64,000 nucleotides of DNA, from sequence record MW822008.1; one strand, written 5' to 3'. The notes below the pieces were generated by a model. It was not told where the DNA came from. It saw nothing but the letters and a program-made list of their open reading frames with translations, and searched no databases. Shown one piece after another: positions 3,257-63,791 of the stretch. Position 1 is the first letter of the stretch, and each line of letters begins with the position of its first letter. Origin of the DNA: Escherichia phage BF17. A program made the position numbers and the translations under genes.

Positions 3257-3321
3257 CTTTTTGATTCTCCATAAGAAGGGAACATTTGATGTATTTATAC
3301 GTGGGACAAAGACGTTTTTGG

Positions 3322-29929: not shown

Positions 29930-35164
<5,235 letters not shown>

Positions 35165-35165
35165 G

Positions 35166-35250
35166 TGATATAATGATGTTTGTCAGGGCAATGAGCCTTG
35201 ACAAACAGAGTAAAAAAACCTTGGGACGGTTAAAAATCCCATGATATAAT
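35166..35250 (+). promoter_or_regulatory. gp32 upstream control region: two TGATATAAT -10 motifs flanking a 9 bp hairpin
   Basis: TGATATAAT at 35166-35174 and 35242-35250; hairpin TGTTTGTCA-(12 nt)-TGACAAACA at 35178-35207. Confidence 0.4.
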
Positions 35251-35336
35251 GTAAATTGTTGATGAGTCAATGAAGACAAATCAACGTTAATAGCCCGTTA
35301 AACTTAACAAACAAACTAATGACAAGGAAGCCCAAT

Positions 35337-36386
35337 ATGCAAACTCTAGCTGAAATTCGTGCAAAACTAAAAGCTGAACAAGAAAAAGCAGAAGCACAGA
35401 AGAATGGTACATTTACAGGTGAACGTAAAGCCGATTCTTTCCTAGCTTTCTGGAATGTCCCTTACAATGAACCACTAAACCTACGTTTTCTACCAGATGC
35501 TGATGAGTCTAACCCATTCTTCTGGCGTGAACGTGATATGATCAACCTAACGTTCCAAGGTATTGTTGGTATGCACACCGATAAAGTTACCGTTCAAGTA
35601 CCATGTAACGAAATGTGGGTTCCTAAATCATGTCCAATTCTTAAAGAAGTACGTCAATGGTTCCAAAGTGCGAATGAAACTGGAAATGAAGAACTGAAAG
35701 CAATGGCTGGTCGTTACTGGAAAAAGAAAACCTATCTAATGCAATGTTTCGTTGCTCCTGATAGCGTAGCAGTAAAAGACGATATTGCTCCAGAAAACCC
35801 AATCCGTCGTATCCTAGCTAACAAAGATATCTTTGATAAAGTTAAATCTATCCTGCTAAACCCAGGCATCAAAGAACTACCAACTCACTACATTCACGGT
35901 CGTGACTTTGGTATTGTTAAAACTAAGAATGGTGGTGGTTACAATAGCTATGACATGTCTCAATTCTCCATGTCCGAGCGTCCACTCAATGAAGAAGAAC
36001 TGGCAGCGATTGAAAAGTTTGGTCTATATAATCTAAATGATTTTATGCCAAAACAACCAACTCCAGAAGAACTAAAAGCTATCGAAGAAATGTTCGAAGC
36101 ATCTGTTGATGGTAAACCTTATGACCCTGCACGTTGGGCTTTCGCTTACCGTCCAGCAGGTGTACAAAAACCAACAACTGGTACTATTAGTGAAAACAAA
36201 CCTGCTCCACAAGCTCCAGTACAACAACCTGCTCCTGCACAAACTCCTGCACCGCAAGCACCAGTAGCTACTCCTACTCCTGCTGCTGAACCAGTAGCTG
36301 CTGCACCAGCACCAGTAGCTGAAGCTCCAAAAGAACAACTTTCTGCATCTGCACTAGTTGCTCGTTTGAAACAACAAGGTAAGTAA
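35337..36386 (+). CDS. 32: Single-stranded DNA-binding protein (T4 gp32 family)
   Basis: AAGGAAG then ATG at 35337; 'LNLRFLPDADESNPFF', Cys/His zinc site 'VPCNEMWVPKSCP', 'QCFVAPDSVAVKDDIAPENP' (T4 'VVKDPAAPENEG'); Pro/Ala/Gln-rich C-terminal tail. Confidence 0.85.
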   Translation: MQTLAEIRAKLKAEQEKAEAQKNGTFTGERKADSFLAFWNVPYNEPLNLRFLPDADESNPFFWRERDMINLTFQGIVGMHTDKVTVQVPCNEMWVPKSCPILKEVRQWFQSANETGNEELKAMAGRYWKKKTYLMQCFVAPDSVAVKDDIAPENPIRRILANKDIFDKVKSILLNPGIKELPTHYIHGRDFGIVKTKNGGGYNSYDMSQFSMSERPLNEEELAAIEKFGLYNLNDFMPKQPTPEELKAIEEMFEASVDGKPYDPARWAFAYRPAGVQKPTTGTISENKPAPQAPVQQPAPAQTPAPQAPVATPTPAAEPVAAAPAPVAEAPKEQLSASALVARLKQQGK

Positions 36387-36404
36387 TAGTATTTGAAAAG
36401 TTAA

Positions 36405-36434
36405 GGGGCAACGGAGTTTGCCCCGTTTTATTTC
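36405..36434 (+). terminator. Intrinsic terminator after gp32
   Basis: GGGGCAAcggagtTTGCCCCgttttatttc. Confidence 0.6.
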
Positions 36435-36455
36435 ATAAAATTCAAGGAGCGAATT

Positions 36456-37574
36456 ATGAAAATGACAAGTGGTTTTGCAAACATTCTAAAAAATAGTACT
36501 GGTAGCGTTAAAAAGAATACTGGTGTTAGCGTAGGCTTTCATGATCCTGATACATGGATTAGTACTGGTAACTTTGCTTTGAACTATCGTATTAGTGGTT
36601 ATTTTGACCGTGGTATTCCACTGGGTAAAGTAACAATGTTTGCTGGTGAATCTGGTTCTGGTAAATCATTTATCGTTTCTGGAAACATCGCCCGTGAAGC
36701 ACAACAACAAGGTATCTTTGTTGTTATGATTGATTCCGAGAACGCATTGGATTCAGATTGGCTACAAGCACTAGGTGTAGACACTTCAGAAGAAAAACTA
36801 CTAAAAGTAAACATGGGTATGATTGGTGATGTTGCTAAATTTACCTATGAGTTCATCGAAGGGTATCGTAAAGAATACGAAAATACTCCTAAAGAAGAAC
36901 GTCAAAAAGTATTATTCATTATCGACTCAATTGGTATGTTGAATACTGAAGTTGCTAATGACCAGATGAAAGCTGGTAACTTGAAAGGTGATATGGGTCA
37001 CAAACCTAAACAGCTTAAAGCTTACATCACCAACTGCGTAAACTCGATTGGTTCACTTAACATTGGTATGGTTTGTGTAAACCATAGTTATGAATCCCAA
37101 GATATGTTCAACCCTGATCCAAAAGTATCTGGTGGTAGTGGTTTGATTTATGCATCTTCTATGGTTATCGCAATGGGTAAACTAAAACTTAAAGAAGATG
37201 AAGAAGGCAACAAGACTTCAGATGTAAGTGGTATTCGTTCTAAATGTAAAGTCATGAAGACTCGTTACAACAAACCATTTGAAGATGTTGAGATTAAAAT
37301 TCCTTGGGATAAAGGTATGGACCCACGCAGTGGTCTACTAGATATGTTCGAGAAATATGAACTTATCGTTAAATCTGGTAACCGTCTAATGTACGTTGAT
37401 ATTGACACTGGTGAACAGATTCTAAAATATCGTAAAGAATGGATGCGTAATGAAGATTCTTGCCTTGATTTAGTTATGAATCAATTCAAACGTCACCCTT
37501 TGATTGAAGAAGTCAAAGAAGAAGAAAAAGGTGATGAATCATTTGGTACTGATATTGGAAGTAGTGAGGAATAA
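36456..37574 (+). CDS. uvsX: UvsX recombinase (RecA-like)
   Basis: Walker A 'GESGSGKS'; 'IDSIG' Walker B region; 'KIPWDKGMDPRSGLLDMFEKYELI' parallels T4 UvsX 'KFDGGIDPYSGLLDMALELGFV'. Confidence 0.85.
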   Translation: MKMTSGFANILKNSTGSVKKNTGVSVGFHDPDTWISTGNFALNYRISGYFDRGIPLGKVTMFAGESGSGKSFIVSGNIAREAQQQGIFVVMIDSENALDSDWLQALGVDTSEEKLLKVNMGMIGDVAKFTYEFIEGYRKEYENTPKEERQKVLFIIDSIGMLNTEVANDQMKAGNLKGDMGHKPKQLKAYITNCVNSIGSLNIGMVCVNHSYESQDMFNPDPKVSGGSGLIYASSMVIAMGKLKLKEDEEGNKTSDVSGIRSKCKVMKTRYNKPFEDVEIKIPWDKGMDPRSGLLDMFEKYELIVKSGNRLMYVDIDTGEQILKYRKEWMRNEDSCLDLVMNQFKRHPLIEEVKEEEKGDESFGTDIGSSEE

Positions 37575-38035
37575 TGAAACCTTGGCATTGGATCATCAAA
37601 GATGATAAATCTAAAATAATCGACATGATTGAACACTTCGAAAAAGAAACTGAAGAAGCTCGTCGTGAAGTTAAAAAGATTGGCATCATTGAAAAGATTG
37701 CTCAGGAGATTCCAGGCTGGCATGAGACTCGTCTCAGTCAGCTTCAAGAACTAGAAGCGGTACTTGAAATGCTAGAAATTGAAATGCGTCAACTACAAGC
37801 TGAAAAGTTTAAATATTTCCTTGAAGCATATCGTCGAGCACTATCATCTTCTGACTGTAAAAAGTATGTTGAAGGTGATAAAGAAGTTTGTGAATTATCC
37901 GAACTAATAAATGAAGTATCATATATCCGTAATACGTTTTCCAGTATTGTTAAATCCTTAGAGATGAAAGCTTTTCAGTTAAACAATATTGTGAGACTAC
38001 GTGCTGCTGGTATTGAAGATGCACGTTTAGAATAA
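37574..38035 (+). CDS. Hypothetical coiled-coil protein (153 aa)
   Basis: Start overlaps the uvsX stop; Glu/Lys-rich helical sequence. Occupies the position where a UvsY-like mediator could sit, but no motif was recognised. Confidence 0.4.
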   Translation: MKPWHWIIKDDKSKIIDMIEHFEKETEEARREVKKIGIIEKIAQEIPGWHETRLSQLQELEAVLEMLEIEMRQLQAEKFKYFLEAYRRALSSSDCKKYVEGDKEVCELSELINEVSYIRNTFSSIVKSLEMKAFQLNNIVRLRAAGIEDARLE

Positions 38036-38916: not shown

Positions 38917-40401
38917 ATGAAAACTTGTAAGCTAACCTTACTGGACGAGGTTAATTGTAAATTTGAGGGACTAGATCCCTCAATTCGTCAGAAGATGATT
39001 CGTGCAACAGAATATGTACTTCCATACGCTAAGTTCACCCCTGCTGGTCGTATTGGTCGTTGGGATGGTAAGGTACAGTTTATGAACTTAGGTGGCAGTA
39101 CTTACTACCACATGTTGGATAAGTTGTTGCCAATCTTAGATGAAGCAAAAATTGATATTGAACTTGAAGATCATCGTGTCAATTATGGATTCAAATTTGA
39201 ACCAATTGATGAAGATATTTTTAGTGATGTTGTGTTTGGTGCTGGACACCACATGGAAGGTAAGTCAATCAAGCTCAGAGAGCATCAGGTGAACGCAGTT
39301 AATGCTTGCCTTGCAAACCCACATGGTTTATTATTAGCAGCTACAGGGGCTGGTAAAACGCTCATCACAGCGGCATTATCCAAGAAGGTACAAGAGTATG
39401 GACGTTCTGTGATTATCGTACCTAGTACTGATTTGGTGCAGCAAACATATGATGACTATGTTATGTGTGGTCTTGACACTGGAGTGTTCTATGGTGCACA
39501 GAAAGACTTTGGTCACCAACACACAATAACTACCTGGCAGTCATTCAACTCTTTGTGGAAGAAAACAAAGAAAGGTGAAATTGAACTGACTGAACAAGAC
39601 GTTCATGACTTTATTGATGGTGTGGTTTGTGTGATTGTCGATGAGTGTCAAGGTGCTGGTGGTGATGCATTAGTTCAAGTACTCTCTAAAGTTATGAATA
39701 ACGTCCCACTTCGCTGGGGATTAACTGGTACAATCCCTAAAGACCAAGTTGTCGCTGCGAAGATTAAATGTAACGTTGGTGATGTGATATTTAAAATCAC
39801 AGCTAAAGAATTACAAGATAAAAAAATACTAAGCACATGTAATGTGAACTGTATTAAACTTAAAAGTAATTTAAAGTTCGCGTCATATGCAGAAGAATTG
39901 AAGTACTTAGTTACTGACCGTGATAGAATGGCATATGTAGCATCACTGATAGGTGCGTTGGCAGAATCTGGAAACACTTTAGTACTGGTTGATAGACTTG
40001 AAGCTGGTGAATTGCTTTGTGAATTTTTGGGTATTCCTAAGTCAGAATTTGTTCGTGGGGAAACCAAAAAGAAAGACCGTGAATCTTCATATGGTGAAAT
40101 TCGCTGGGCTGATAACAAAATACTCATTGCAACCTATGGGGTAGCAAGTACTGGTATCAGTATTTCTCGTTTGTATAATGTCGTTCTAATCGAACCAGGA
40201 AAAAGCTTCGTTCGTACAATACAGTCCATTGGTCGTGGGTTGCGTCGTGCAGAAGACAAAGACCACGTGGAAATCTTTGATATCAGTGGTACAAACAAAT
40301 ATAGTGCAAAACACTTACGTGAACGTTTACAATACTATAAGGAAGCACAATATCCTCATAGTATCATAGATGTTAAGGATTGGGAAAATACAGCGGGATA
40401 A
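38917..40401 (+). CDS. uvsW: SF2 DNA helicase, UvsW-like
   Basis: Walker A 'ATGAGKT', 'VIVDECQ' DEAD-like box, 'TGT' motif III, C-terminal 'QSIGRGLRR'; N-terminal 'RWDGKVQFMN' resembles T4 UvsW 'NWDGRIRLL'. Confidence 0.75.
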   Translation: MKTCKLTLLDEVNCKFEGLDPSIRQKMIRATEYVLPYAKFTPAGRIGRWDGKVQFMNLGGSTYYHMLDKLLPILDEAKIDIELEDHRVNYGFKFEPIDEDIFSDVVFGAGHHMEGKSIKLREHQVNAVNACLANPHGLLLAATGAGKTLITAALSKKVQEYGRSVIIVPSTDLVQQTYDDYVMCGLDTGVFYGAQKDFGHQHTITTWQSFNSLWKKTKKGEIELTEQDVHDFIDGVVCVIVDECQGAGGDALVQVLSKVMNNVPLRWGLTGTIPKDQVVAAKIKCNVGDVIFKITAKELQDKKILSTCNVNCIKLKSNLKFASYAEELKYLVTDRDRMAYVASLIGALAESGNTLVLVDRLEAGELLCEFLGIPKSEFVRGETKKKDRESSYGEIRWADNKILIATYGVASTGISISRLYNVVLIEPGKSFVRTIQSIGRGLRRAEDKDHVEIFDISGTNKYSAKHLRERLQYYKEAQYPHSIIDVKDWENTAG

Positions 40402-40457
40402 TCCCGCTGTACATGATATAATGTGTCGTATGACAACAACAAGGAAGTAAAATAAAA

Positions 40458-55970: not shown

Positions 55971-55977
55971 TTAAAGA

Positions 55978-56002
55978 TCCCGCTTCGGCGGGATTTATTT
56001 CA
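55978..56002 (+). terminator. Intrinsic terminator after nrdA
   Basis: ATCCCGCttcgGCGGGATttatttc. Confidence 0.65.
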
Positions 56003-56015
56003 TAGGAGTGATATA

Positions 56016-56789
56016 ATGAAAGTTGACTATCGTAGTCCAATAGATATTGGATTCATAGAAGAATTTTGGGATGATCTTGATATGGATATGATTGTTCGCT
56101 ATCAAAAACTCCCACAAGACTTTATAAAAAAACATTTTGATAAAATGAACCCTAATATGTTAGCTCGATATCAAACAATGACAACTGATTTTCTTAAAGA
56201 AAAGTGGGAGTGGTTTGATAAAAATGTTATTGCACAATATGTAGTCATGCCAATGGAATTGATTATGGAAAAATGGAATGACTTCAAAGATAACTTTCTG
56301 GATACTGTTGCTAAGTATCAAAAACTAACACAAGATTTTATTCAAGACAAATGGAATGACCTTGTTGAATTTAGAGATGGTGTAATGTCGGAAATTTCCA
56401 GATACCAAAAACTAACACTTGATTTCATTAAAGATAAATGGGATTATATTGATAAGAACTATATTTCATATTATCAAACTTTAACGGTTGATTTTATCAA
56501 AGATAATATTACTGCATTAAATGTTGCAGCAGTATCCGCATTTCAAATACTATCGGATGATATACGCTCATTGATGGGGTTAGAAGCACCAGCAAAAACT
56601 ATTACGGGTAATCAAATACTCGCGTTGGACCCATGTGCCGATGGTATGGCTCGATACAATGCTCATACACCTGACAATAATACAGTTTTGACATGGAATG
56701 AACTACTTACACTACACTTGGGTTCACAAGAAGGAATTAGTGATATCCATTGGCTATCATATAAATTGGGTCATAAAATTAATACATAA
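56016..56789 (+). CDS. Tandem-repeat protein of unknown function between nrdA and nrdB
   Basis: About seven ~23 aa units of the form F-[IL]-K-x-K-W-x(3-5)-D-x(5-8)-Y-Q-x-[LM]-T-x-D (e.g. 'YQKLTQDFIQDKW', 'YQKLTLDFIKDKW', 'YQTLTVDFIKDN'). Confidence 0.5.
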   Translation: MKVDYRSPIDIGFIEEFWDDLDMDMIVRYQKLPQDFIKKHFDKMNPNMLARYQTMTTDFLKEKWEWFDKNVIAQYVVMPMELIMEKWNDFKDNFLDTVAKYQKLTQDFIQDKWNDLVEFRDGVMSEISRYQKLTLDFIKDKWDYIDKNYISYYQTLTVDFIKDNITALNVAAVSAFQILSDDIRSLMGLEAPAKTITGNQILALDPCADGMARYNAHTPDNNTVLTWNELLTLHLGSQEGISDIHWLSYKLGHKINT

Positions 56790-62447: not shown

Positions 62448-63791
62448 ATGATGAGTAAAATCAAGCTTACGGATAAGCAACAAGAAATTTTTGATAATTT
62501 TGTAGATCGTGTTTATAATTATGCAGGTAAAACTATATCTGTACTGTCAGCACCAGCGGGTACAGGTAAAACTTTCACTACTGCTGAGATTGTTAAAGCA
62601 CTATGTAAAAATTACAATATTGCAGTAACATCGCCAACACACAAGGCAAACTCTGTTATTCGCAATATGCTAATCAATAATGCTGGGTTAACTAAAGAAG
62701 ATGCACAGGTTAGCACTATTCACTCATTTCTAGGTTTAAAACTAGTATATGAAAAGAATCGTCAAGTACTGAAGCATGACCCACAAAGTAAAGTTAGTAA
62801 TACTAATGTTGATATTCTAATTGTCGATGAATGTAGTATGATTTCAGAAGAACTGTTTCAACACATTCAGGATCAATTGTGGCGTGTTCGCCGAGCGGTT
62901 TTATTCATCGGTGATCGCTGTCAGTTGCCTCCAGTTGAATCAGAAGGAACAATAGGAGAAACTAAGCTTTCCCCTACTTTTGATGTTCCAGTACAATATG
63001 AATTAACAGAAGTTTTACGTCAAGCGTTGGATAACCCTATACTTGCAATTGCAACTGCAATTCGTGAGTGCATAGGTACATCCAAGAACCCGTTTGATAT
63101 TATGCACCAGACACATGGTTTGAGTACTATTACACCAATTGAAGATGAAGATCTTTTCTTGGAAGTTTACCGTGAATTTATTATGGAGAACAAAGGTTCA
63201 GCTAAGAAGATATTTGATTTTGTTAATGAAAATAAAATTTTGGCATACACTAACTACCGTGTGAACTTGGCTAACATCTACATTCGTAGCCAATTGTTTG
63301 AAGTACCAGAGGAATTCACAAAAGGTGAACCGATTGTATTTGAAAGTATCACTGAGAACAGTCCATATGTGGTCCAGCAAATCATCCAATGTCCTGATGT
63401 GAAAACCGAAAGTTTCATGGGGATTGACTGTTGGCAATTCCGTTTACCAAATGGTAGCTACATCTTAGGTGTAGGGCCAGAAACGAGAATTGCAATGGAA
63501 ACTAAACTTGATGAACTAGTTAAAAACATTGAGAAAAAAGAAATCAACCCATTGACAAAGAAACCATATATGTGGCAAGATTACTATGTGATTAAAAACA
63601 AATTACATATTATCAACTATCCTTATGCAACAACTGTTCACAAATCACAAGGAAGTACATTCGATAACATCTGGTTTGATACTGATTTTATTGAGCGTAT
63701 TGGCACTAATGATACAAAATGTAGAATCCTATATACTGCAATGACACGACCGCGTTATAATGTTATGTTGCGTCAAAATGCACGATTCTAA
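62448..63791 (+). CDS. dda: SF1 DNA helicase, Dda/RecD-like
   Basis: Walker A 'APAGTGKTFT', 'LIVDECSM' Walker B, C-terminal 'TVHKSQGSTFD' motif. Confidence 0.75.
   Translation: MMSKIKLTDKQQEIFDNFVDRVYNYAGKTISVLSAPAGTGKTFTTAEIVKALCKNYNIAVTSPTHKANSVIRNMLINNAGLTKEDAQVSTIHSFLGLKLVYEKNRQVLKHDPQSKVSNTNVDILIVDECSMISEELFQHIQDQLWRVRRAVLFIGDRCQLPPVESEGTIGETKLSPTFDVPVQYELTEVLRQALDNPILAIATAIRECIGTSKNPFDIMHQTHGLSTITPIEDEDLFLEVYREFIMENKGSAKKIFDFVNENKILAYTNYRVNLANIYIRSQLFEVPEEFTKGEPIVFESITENSPYVVQQIIQCPDVKTESFMGIDCWQFRLPNGSYILGVGPETRIAMETKLDELVKNIEKKEINPLTKKPYMWQDYYVIKNKLHIINYPYATTVHKSQGSTFDNIWFDTDFIERIGTNDTKCRILYTAMTRPRYNVMLRQNARF

Follow-up and report, generated by a model that had tools for sequence, protein, structure and literature searches.

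How does a jumbo coliphage control the gene for its gp32-type single-stranded-DNA-binding protein (SSB)? The question is raised by a 172-bp spacer (35165-35336) in a 64,000-nucleotide stretch of Escherichia phage BF17 (sequence record MW822008.1), the whole of which is called the window here. The spacer lies directly upstream of ssb (35337-36386, + strand), a gene for a 349-aa protein of the gp32 family, and a sequence-only reading had taken it for a structured leader with tandem promoters, likely to be an autoregulatory operator of the T4 gene 32 kind. Our analysis showed a conserved one-gene unit, made up of two promoter-class motifs, hairpins biased towards the RNA strand, a long open leader, a box confined to ssb in the sequence scanned, and a terminator-like hairpin behind the gene. 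As a possible rather than a probable answer, and the one that we favour, the spacer would be a dedicated expression-control region of ssb, with the open tract as a translational operator bound by SSB itself. In the literature searched no description of this leader was found; the promoter class and the autoregulation of T4 gp32 were already known.

Homologous spacers were fetched from 18 sequenced relatives, four more distant jumbo phages and 31 viral metagenome contig loci. The hosts of the 18 relatives belong to Escherichia, Salmonella, Klebsiella, Serratia, Yersinia, Cronobacter, Pectobacterium, Erwinia, Xanthomonas and Vibrio; the close group of relatives is named clade A. The spacer before ssb was long in all 18 (172-430 bp), with two -10 elements 75-112 nt apart, and the hairpins, the leader length and the box were kept in nearly all of them. 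The closer metagenomic relatives shared the tandem -10 elements, the hairpins, the leader length and the box as well. A structured element followed by an unstructured leader before a gp32-type gene, as the sequence-only reading had described, is indeed present, and the comparison of homologous leaders, on which that reading had made its proposal depend, showed the layout to be conserved.

Promoters and hairpins of the ssb unit

Two copies of the extended -10 motif TGATATAAT precede ssb, at 35166-35174 and 35242-35250. They had been read as tandem promoters about 75 nt apart; the distance is 76 nt, and the motifs can be assigned to a promoter class of the phage. In the window TGATATAAT occurs seven times against 1.66 expected, every time on the + strand, and TGNTATAAT occurs 13 times on the + strand and not once on the - strand (5.8 expected). 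Most window copies of TGNTATAAT have G(G/A)GACA 13 bp upstream, and the composite GACA-N12-14-TGNTATAAT gave seven matches against 0.06 expected, again all on the + strand (at 3305, 8012, 35149, 45250, 51673, 58150 and 62084). The layout of the class is an A-tract, GRGACA, 13-14 bp and TGNTATAAT.

The upstream promoter, P1 (35147-35174, + strand), has the -35-like hexamer GAGACA at 35147-35152, a 13-bp spacer and TGATATAAT, and is with this sequence (GAGACA-N13-TGATATAAT) a full member of the class and one of the seven composite matches. The A7 tract before it (35138-35144, + strand) lies inside the end of the upstream structural gene and resembles the proximal subsite of an UP element, a layout repeated at the second promoter and in relatives. 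That promoter, P2 (35221-35250, + strand), consists of TTGGGACG (35221-35228), a spacer and TGATATAAT; read as GGGACG (35223)-N13-TGATATAAT it is one base off the class, and relatives carry GGGACA, or TGAAAC, there at equal spacing. A second UP-like A7 tract (35212-35218, + strand) ends 2 nt upstream of its -35-like element, and an A-tract was seen at the same place in nearly all relatives. UP-like elements have been noted at promoters of phage CBB (PMC5259590). Judged by their sequence, P1 and P2 can be regarded as genuine members of a phage-wide promoter class. In RaK2, KP13-7 and XaC1 one or more of the tandem -10 elements are without the TG, and JNE01 and XaC1 have three promoter-like -10 matches each.

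In CBB, 18 sites of the form TGAAACG-spacer-TGNTATAAT have been described, concentrated near DNA-synthesis genes and found in GAP32 too; the published list contains neither the ssb promoters nor their tandem arrangement (PMC5259590). P1 and P2 share the architecture of this divergent RpoD-like class, for which Table S6 of the CBB study is the comparison list (a -35-like hexamer that is not canonical, about 13-14 bp of spacer and TGNTATAAT, on the coding strand), as well as its neighbourhood of DNA-synthesis genes, and would be its Asteriusvirus version, in which GRGACA replaces TGAAAC. The -35-like word varies by genus, being GRGACA in Asteriusvirus and TGAAACG in Mimasvirus and Eneladusvirus. 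Since this word differs between genera while the extended -10 stays constant, a co-evolving phage-encoded factor is hinted at, rather than region 4 of the host sigma-70.

A GGGA...TCCC stem of 4 bp in the P2 spacer, flagged as terminator-like on the - strand, was rejected; it is not conserved in relatives and overlaps the -35-like element. Other short complementarities in the spacers of relatives were read as a by-product of the -35-like and TGTG consensus. In Eneladusvirus and Mimasvirus relatives (loci L007, L008, L009, L013 and L015) a motif resembling the T4 late promoter, (T)ATAAATA, lies just upstream of P1, within the first 50 nt after the structural-gene stop; by its sequence it may give ssb of these phages a third, late promoter, for which Table S7 of the CBB study is the comparison list (PMC5259590). 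No (T)ATAAATA motif was found in the spacer of the window.

The perfect 9-bp hairpin claimed between the two promoter motifs was confirmed (TGTTTGTCA at 35177-35185 with TGACAAACA at 35199-35207) and extends to 13 pairs as RNA. This hairpin, H1 (35177-35207, + strand), includes one G-U pair, has the loop AAUGA and a folding energy of -20.4 kcal/mol, and is more stable than 99.8% of local 34-nt windows. The pair GTTGAT/ATCAAC exists too, 10-15 nt away from where it had been placed (35268-35300); its arms, at 35258-35263 and 35280-35285, form the outer stem GUUGAU/AUCAAC of a second hairpin, H2 (35258-35285, + strand), followed by an internal loop GA/AA, an inner stem GUC/GAC and the loop AAUGAA (-10.0 kcal/mol). 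The first paired base lies 3 nt after the -10 at H1 and 8 nt after it at H2. For a sigma-70-type promoter the start would be expected 5-8 nt after the -10 hexamer, and for the GAP32/CBB-type class 6-8 nt downstream of the -10; the P1 transcript would then start inside or flush with the H1 stem, and H2 would stand at the 5' end of the P2 transcript, both starts being predicted ones.

In almost every relative a hairpin follows each promoter. At the ssb-proximal promoter of the relatives the first paired base falls 5-8 nt after the -10 hexamer and almost all have the two-tier H2-type geometry, and in most of them P1 is followed by an equivalent of H1 with a different sequence. The promoter-proximal 34-nt windows were among the most stable 10% of windows in their own locus in 31 of 47 cases, for which the binomial P of 3e-20 is overstated, the sequences being related. 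The stem sequences are wholly different by genus (GUUGAU.. here, AGGAAC/GUUUCU in 121Q, UGUCA..GGC in the GAP32 group, ACC..GACAC in Hallingskeid), and what recurs despite this change is the two-tier geometry, purine-rich internal loops and a purine-rich apical loop of 5-6 nt. Within Asteriusvirus the outer stem of H2 shows compensatory changes (GUU/AAC, GUC/GAC, AUC/GAU). Covariation was counted in one group only, Eneladusvirus and Mimasvirus, and was modest there: two of the eight pairs had double changes, a score reached by 10 of 500 shuffles, and 92% of cells were paired against 14-53% with the partner slid. RNAalifold, applied to 12 leaders aligned with MAFFT (alignment A1), failed to recover H2; its one result was a 3-bp stem, not present in the window, around the Shine-Dalgarno sequence. 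It missed H2 because the hairpins are out of sequence register between genera, and conservation was therefore judged by per-sequence folds, position and background percentiles.

Both palindromes lie right at promoters, where a bound protein would block RNA polymerase, and the inverted repeats could work at the DNA level, for instance as operators, just downstream of the promoters, of a dimeric DNA-binding repressor. Their strand bias points to RNA instead: the fold of the + strand is more stable than that of the - strand in 17 of 20 H1-type and 11 of 17 H2-type hairpins, owing to G-U pairs, which in the arms of the H1-type hairpins make up 19 of 181 pairs and become A-C mismatches on the other strand. 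Moreover, the arm sequences vary between genera and the geometry is kept, whereas a DNA operator would keep its sequence. We consider DNA operators very unlikely and take the hairpins to act as RNA. Nor are they merely part of the promoter, since such a hairpin is missing downstream of some promoters of the class in the window. H1 was also considered as a terminator of the upstream gene and rejected, as A-rich sequence follows it, a U-tail is missing and the P1 -10 precedes it.

In E. coli, stem-loops that stand flush with the 5' end are known to slow 5'-end-dependent decay, and stabilisers of this kind, in leaders of the ompA type, were reportedly described by Emory, Bouvet and Belasco in 1992. 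H1 and H2 would resemble them in standing within a few nucleotides of the predicted 5' end, flush with it if transcription starts at the usual distance from the -10, and in keeping position and pairing while the sequence varies. By this analogy the most likely role of the 5'-flush hairpins is to shield ssb mRNA from decay that depends on the 5' end.

The open leader and its box

From H2 to the start codon runs a leader tract of 51 nt (35286-35336, + strand), composed of 47% A, 24% C, 13% G and 16% U. An A/U-rich unstructured stretch had been expected before the ribosome-binding site; the tract is A/C-rich instead, and it is open, though moderately, with a mean unpaired probability of 0.64 compared with 0.50 +/- 0.11 at 50 other gene starts in the window. 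Across the relatives the mean was 0.76. The ssb-proximal -10 motif begins 86-106 nt before the AUG in most clade A phages, and other promoters of the class in the window lie 25-41 nt before their start codons, so the ssb leader is unusually long and its length is conserved. The start codon is ATG 35337, 7 nt after the Shine-Dalgarno sequence AAGGAA; an in-frame ATG at 35319 was rejected as the start, having no Shine-Dalgarno sequence and not being conserved among relatives.

The tract contains a box, AACAAACAAAC (35306-35316, + strand), that begins 31 nt before the AUG and differs by one G-to-C change from the family consensus AACAAAGAAAC. Alignment A1, which comprises 12 diverse clade A leaders, held three invariant islands only, namely the -10, the Shine-Dalgarno sequence and, between them, AACAAA(G/C)AA; outside these islands clade A leaders were unalignable. 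In 20 of 25 clade A leaders the start of the box nearest the Shine-Dalgarno sequence falls between 27 and 33 nt before the AUG, and the 11-nt core of this box is nearly invariant. A search for ACAAAGAARC in 22 loci (about 85 kb, both strands) gave 17 matches, every one on the + strand and in an ssb leader, when about half a match was expected by chance. Within the window AACAAACAAAC is unique, and the sole canonical ACAAAGAAAC, at 63555, falls within a coding region. The box is thus shown to be no common motif in the sequence scanned, that is, about 85 kb of relatives and the 64-kb window.

Many relatives have a second copy of the box, either 15-29 nt upstream (JNE01, Munch, RaK2 and the GAP32 group) or in direct tandem (loci L032 and L034). 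In the window a box-like copy, ACAAGGAAGC (35322-35331, + strand), includes the Shine-Dalgarno sequence AAGGAA (35324-35329) and is one base off the family box variant ACAAAGAAGC, a similarity read by eye. A longest-exact-repeat test was significant in GAP32 (p 0.002), locus L041 (p < 0.002) and Atu_ph07 (p 0.018); a 7-mer repeat test allowing one mismatch was uninformative within single leaders. The claim of a repeated box rests mainly on conservation across genomes.

Farther away, the boxes differ. SSB homologues of uncultured phages with 40-50% identity (L039-L049) have a TTGACA-type promoter, a hairpin at the predicted start and then two to four copies of UAGGCA(A/C)A that end just before AAGGAG. 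Atu_ph07 has three to four copies of CACAAUU(U)AG, with the Shine-Dalgarno sequence within the last one, and PA5oct has UUAGGAUAA and, 21 nt on, UUAAGGAUAA, which is its Shine-Dalgarno sequence. In the T4 gene 32 leader the pseudoknot is followed by UUAAUUAAAUUAAAUUAAAAAGGAAAUAAAAAUG, and the UUAAA repeats run into the Shine-Dalgarno sequence. Set side by side, AACAAAGAAAC and UAGGCAAA illustrate how the boxes differ by clade. Read in this way, the leaders, that of T4 included, share one syntax: a 5' structure, an open tract, and short clade-specific boxes running into the Shine-Dalgarno sequence.

Much of this would also be expected of a high-expression leader without feedback, in which promoters and stem-loops raise the level and life span of the mRNA, and tract and box serve as an enhancer or a ribosome standby site contacted by S1 or the 30S subunit. 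SSB has to be made in very large amounts, an open, A-rich tract would suit such a role, and the duplication of the promoter, of which JNE01 has a third copy, has the appearance of selection for dose. The box, whose sequence resembles a weak Shine-Dalgarno context (ACAAAGAAAC compared with AUAAGGAAAUC), is fixed at -31 to -21, within the region contacted by an initiating ribosome, and does not vary among phages infecting hosts whose ribosome is itself nearly invariant. However, it was found at no other gene in the window or in about 85 kb of relatives' loci, stretches with further genes of replication and recombination and at least one gene for a virion structural protein, and distant SSB relatives have quite different boxes at the same place, which is unexpected for a shared ribosomal target. 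Complementarity of the box to E. coli 16S rRNA was unconvincing in a test of low power (best -8.6 kcal/mol, p 0.07, at helix 6) and is absent for the variant box of the window. We regard an enhancer of expression pure and simple as a real possibility, nearly as likely as an operator bound by SSB.

The box could also be the target of another trans-acting factor, such as a RegA-like RNA-binding repressor encoded by the phage, CsrA of the host or a small RNA. An invariant, sequence-specific 11-mer would suit a dedicated RNA-binding protein, and in the Eneladusvirus/Mimasvirus leaders an AGGAA apical loop in H2 and the Shine-Dalgarno sequence AAGGAA in the loop of a small hairpin together look like a two-site CsrA target. 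Yet the GGA-in-loop arrangement is absent from the window and from the other Asteriusvirus leaders, a general repressor would be expected at several genes and the box was seen only at ssb in the sequence scanned, and no outstanding complement for a small RNA was present in the window, where a 9-mer gave two matches on the - strand at chance level. Such a factor seems unlikely to us.

The small hairpin is itself a recurrent feature. In many relatives (among them loci L004, L006, L007, L008 and L010) the Shine-Dalgarno sequence AAGGAA sits in the loop of a mini hairpin of 3-5 bp, about 5-20 nt before the ssb AUG, which is absent at 35320-35336 in the window. Its stem covaries (UGAU..AUCA in the BF/GAP32 group, GUA..UAC in A4, Hallingskeid and Munch, UGAUA..UAUCA in XaC1), with changes on both sides at three of three pairs. 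It is in the BF/GAP32 group that this hairpin and the AGGAA loop of H2 resemble a CsrA target with two sites.

SSB as candidate ligand and the T4 operator

What defines the operators of T4, T2 and RB69 is a pseudoknot of the H type at their 5' end, about 28 nt long, from which the binding of gp32 is nucleated (PMC535899, PMC3014915). A pseudoknot-forming segment had been suspected in GTTGAT...ATCAAC, which turned out to be a plain two-tier hairpin. Pseudoknots were searched with our own enumerator of two-stem H-type pseudoknots, comparing stacking sums with 100 shuffles. The best candidate in the window leader scored -13.3 against -13.1 +/- 2.5 for the shuffles, of which 43 of 100 were as good. 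In the T4 control the enumerator recovered UGCC/GGUA plus GCUAUGA/UCAUAGC at -19.2 against -12.4 +/- 2.2, with none of 100 shuffles as good. No pseudoknot was common to the relatives; the best candidates in 121Q, A4, BF and Hallingskeid were mutually different and GAP32 was without any. The second stem of a pseudoknot finds few partners, because purines dominate the H2 loops and U is scarce in the tract downstream. A scan of 34000-37000 against Rfam (E <= 1) gave no match.

A strict T4-type operator, with a 5' pseudoknot nucleating SSB onto an A/U-rich tract of UUAAA repeats, is hardly credible on these results. The order of structured element and open tract would suit it, and UUAA occurs three times in 35287-35307; the pseudoknot potential at shuffle level with none shared by relatives, the purine-rich loops, the U-poor tract and the empty Rfam scan all contradict it.

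What remains of the likeness to T4, T2 and RB69 is the syntax. In both cases the leader belongs to a gp32-family SSB gene with its own promoters and a one-gene transcript, and a 5' structure at the start of a stable transcript is followed by 40-50 nt of open RNA leading into the Shine-Dalgarno sequence, with short boxes of which the last is merged with it (UUAAUUAAAUUAAAUUAAAAAGGAAAU in T4). In T4-type operators the structure is separated from the AUG by over 40 nt of unstructured RNA, which takes in the ribosome-binding site, and the 51-nt tract at 35286-35336 provides as much. The differences lie in the parts: a two-tier hairpin stands in place of the H-type pseudoknot, the tract is A/C-rich and U-poor whereas that of T4 consists of A and U only, and one or two copies of AACAAAGAAAC correspond to four of UUAAA. 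No UUAAA/UAAA repeats of the T4 type were found in the unstructured part, where AACAAAGAAAC is the conserved element instead. The T4-like layout proposed earlier thus stood in its syntax and fell in the pseudoknot and the repeat unit. The element would work like a gp32-type operator, and may be one, but it fails these two features of the T4 family. According to reviews of T4, the operators of T4 relatives are divergent or unrecognisable (PMC535899, PMC3014915).

The protein matches the Pfam family gp32 (PF08804, E 7e-7), RefSeq relatives annotate the ssb product as single-strand DNA-binding protein, and BLASTP against T4 gp32 gave 24% identity over 216 residues (E 5e-6), the distance of the two proteins being one more difference from the T4 system. 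Pfam and the direct BLASTP comparison were used because a search of PDB sequences with SSB gave no gp32 match, the protein being too distant. The alignment starts at residue 2 of SSB and reaches T4 residue 191, so that the N-terminal segment of SSB can be aligned with the T4 gp32 segment that mediates cooperative binding (PMC535899).

SSB is favoured as the ligand because the box was found only at ssb in the sequence scanned, because the layout parallels one proven case, because the box changes with the SSB clade, and because this N-terminal segment is kept. In the mechanism that we propose, two copies of the standard phage promoter, both of which would fire, drive a one-gene ssb transcript that ends at the terminator behind the gene, and H1 and H2 would protect the mRNA 5' ends at the predicted starts. 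The A-rich tract of about 50 nt, with its box at -31 and the box-like copy over the Shine-Dalgarno sequence, would form a gene-specific translational operator. When free SSB is in excess of single-stranded DNA it would bind the open tract, spread over the Shine-Dalgarno sequence and block ribosome loading, as in T4 gene 32; the 5' hairpin would take the role of the T4 pseudoknot, with a different repeat unit. What we infer from sequence in this proposal is where the transcripts start, that the hairpins stabilise the mRNA and that SSB is the factor which binds.

Several observations weigh against SSB as the ligand. The binding of gp32 is largely sequence-independent, and for this reason a simple lattice model does not predict an invariant 11-mer. 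Positions -31 to -21 of an mRNA form the 5' edge of the stretch covered by the initiating ribosome, so the box fits a translational enhancer equally well. In BF17 itself the tract is only moderately open (0.64), the box carries the G-to-C change, and the longest-exact-repeat test within the leader, which has low power, was not significant (p 0.53), as it was not in T4 (p 0.27). In the literature searched we found neither a mapping of transcripts in Asteriusvirus or RaK2-like phages nor a binding or repression assay for the group, and the RNA-seq paper on PA5oct does not mention the ssb leader. Even among T4 relatives, for example RB49, autoregulation is not universal or not known (PMC535899, PMC3014915).

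A wider reading, which we find on balance doubtful, is that the gp32-type SSBs of jumbo phages repress their own translation by reading a sequence, and that a short RNA box of its own has co-evolved in every SSB clade. The boxes would then be AACAAAGAAAC in the RaK2/121Q/GAP32 group, UAGGCA(A/C)A in the uncultured clade, CACAAUUUAG in Atu_ph07 and UUAAA in T4. One to four copies would lie between a 5'-terminal hairpin and the Shine-Dalgarno sequence, and the T4 pseudoknot operator would be a special case of an ancient and widespread grammar. If this were true, the box would be a defined handle on how a 'non-specific' SSB selects its own mRNA.

How the sequence-independent gp32 of T4 selects its own mRNA has so far been explained only in part. 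The leader described here would be a second, independent version of the T4 layout, in a large group of jumbo phages that are used therapeutically, and its invariant 11-nt box and simple hairpin, both easily mutated, offer a clean handle on the recognition by SSB of its own mRNA. If SSB binds the box, the question of specificity becomes directly testable. If it does not, the leader is still a compact, conserved high-expression cassette of tandem promoters, 5' stabiliser and enhancer, useful for annotation and engineering.

Terminator and neighbouring genes

The one-gene unit is closed by an intrinsic-terminator-like element (36405-36434, + strand), in which the hairpin GGGGCAACGGAGTTTGCCCC (36405-36424) is followed by a T-rich tail. 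The homologous site in phage CBB is listed as terminator Torf277 (PMC5259590 supplement).

Region 33800-37600 shares 99.7% identity with Escherichia phage Ecwhy_1 and 87.7% with the PBECO4 group, of which 121Q (genus Asteriusvirus) is a member; weaker matches were to the RaK2, GAP32, CBB, BF and Yen9-04 groups of jumbo phages. By these matches the source of the window is a jumbo coliphage of the Asteriusvirus type. The gene order is large terminase, virion structural protein (33860-35164), the 172-bp spacer, ssb, UvsX (36456-37574) and UvsY (37574-38035). Small open reading frames (ORFs) overlap the spacer on either strand, at 35079-35279 and 35287-35412 (- strand) in the window, 1664-1795 in L010 and 1603-1819 in L015. 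In some relatives they carry the annotation hypothetical protein; they lack conservation between genera and are unlikely to be genes.

The large terminase region (31525-33827, + strand) contains three overlapping ORFs in different frames (31525-32211, 32183-32527 and 32490-33827). Terminase_6N matched only the last of these, from profile position 33 on, and the end of the middle one resembles a disrupted Walker A motif. Relatives annotate terL either as a single 2.66-kb gene (UE-S1, JNE01, RaK2) or as the 445-aa part alone (A4). The three ORFs could be due to a frameshift, a split gene or a sequencing artefact.

At two other places in the window, 40385-40422 and 55975-56017, the terminator-like hairpins AGCGGGAtaaTCCCGCT and GATCCCGCttcgGCGGGATtt lie directly upstream of TGATATAAT (at 40414 and 56009). 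Short, duplicable modules of promoter and stem-loop are known as PeSL cassettes in T4-like phages (PMC2839356, PMC4122927), and the ssb spacer is like them in this respect, JNE01 having three such modules before ssb. In PeSL cassettes, however, the stem-loop is a terminator that precedes the promoter, whereas H1 and H2 come after their promoters and are without U-tails. It is the sites at 40414 and 56009, with a terminator-like hairpin directly before TGATATAAT, that resemble the PeSL arrangement.

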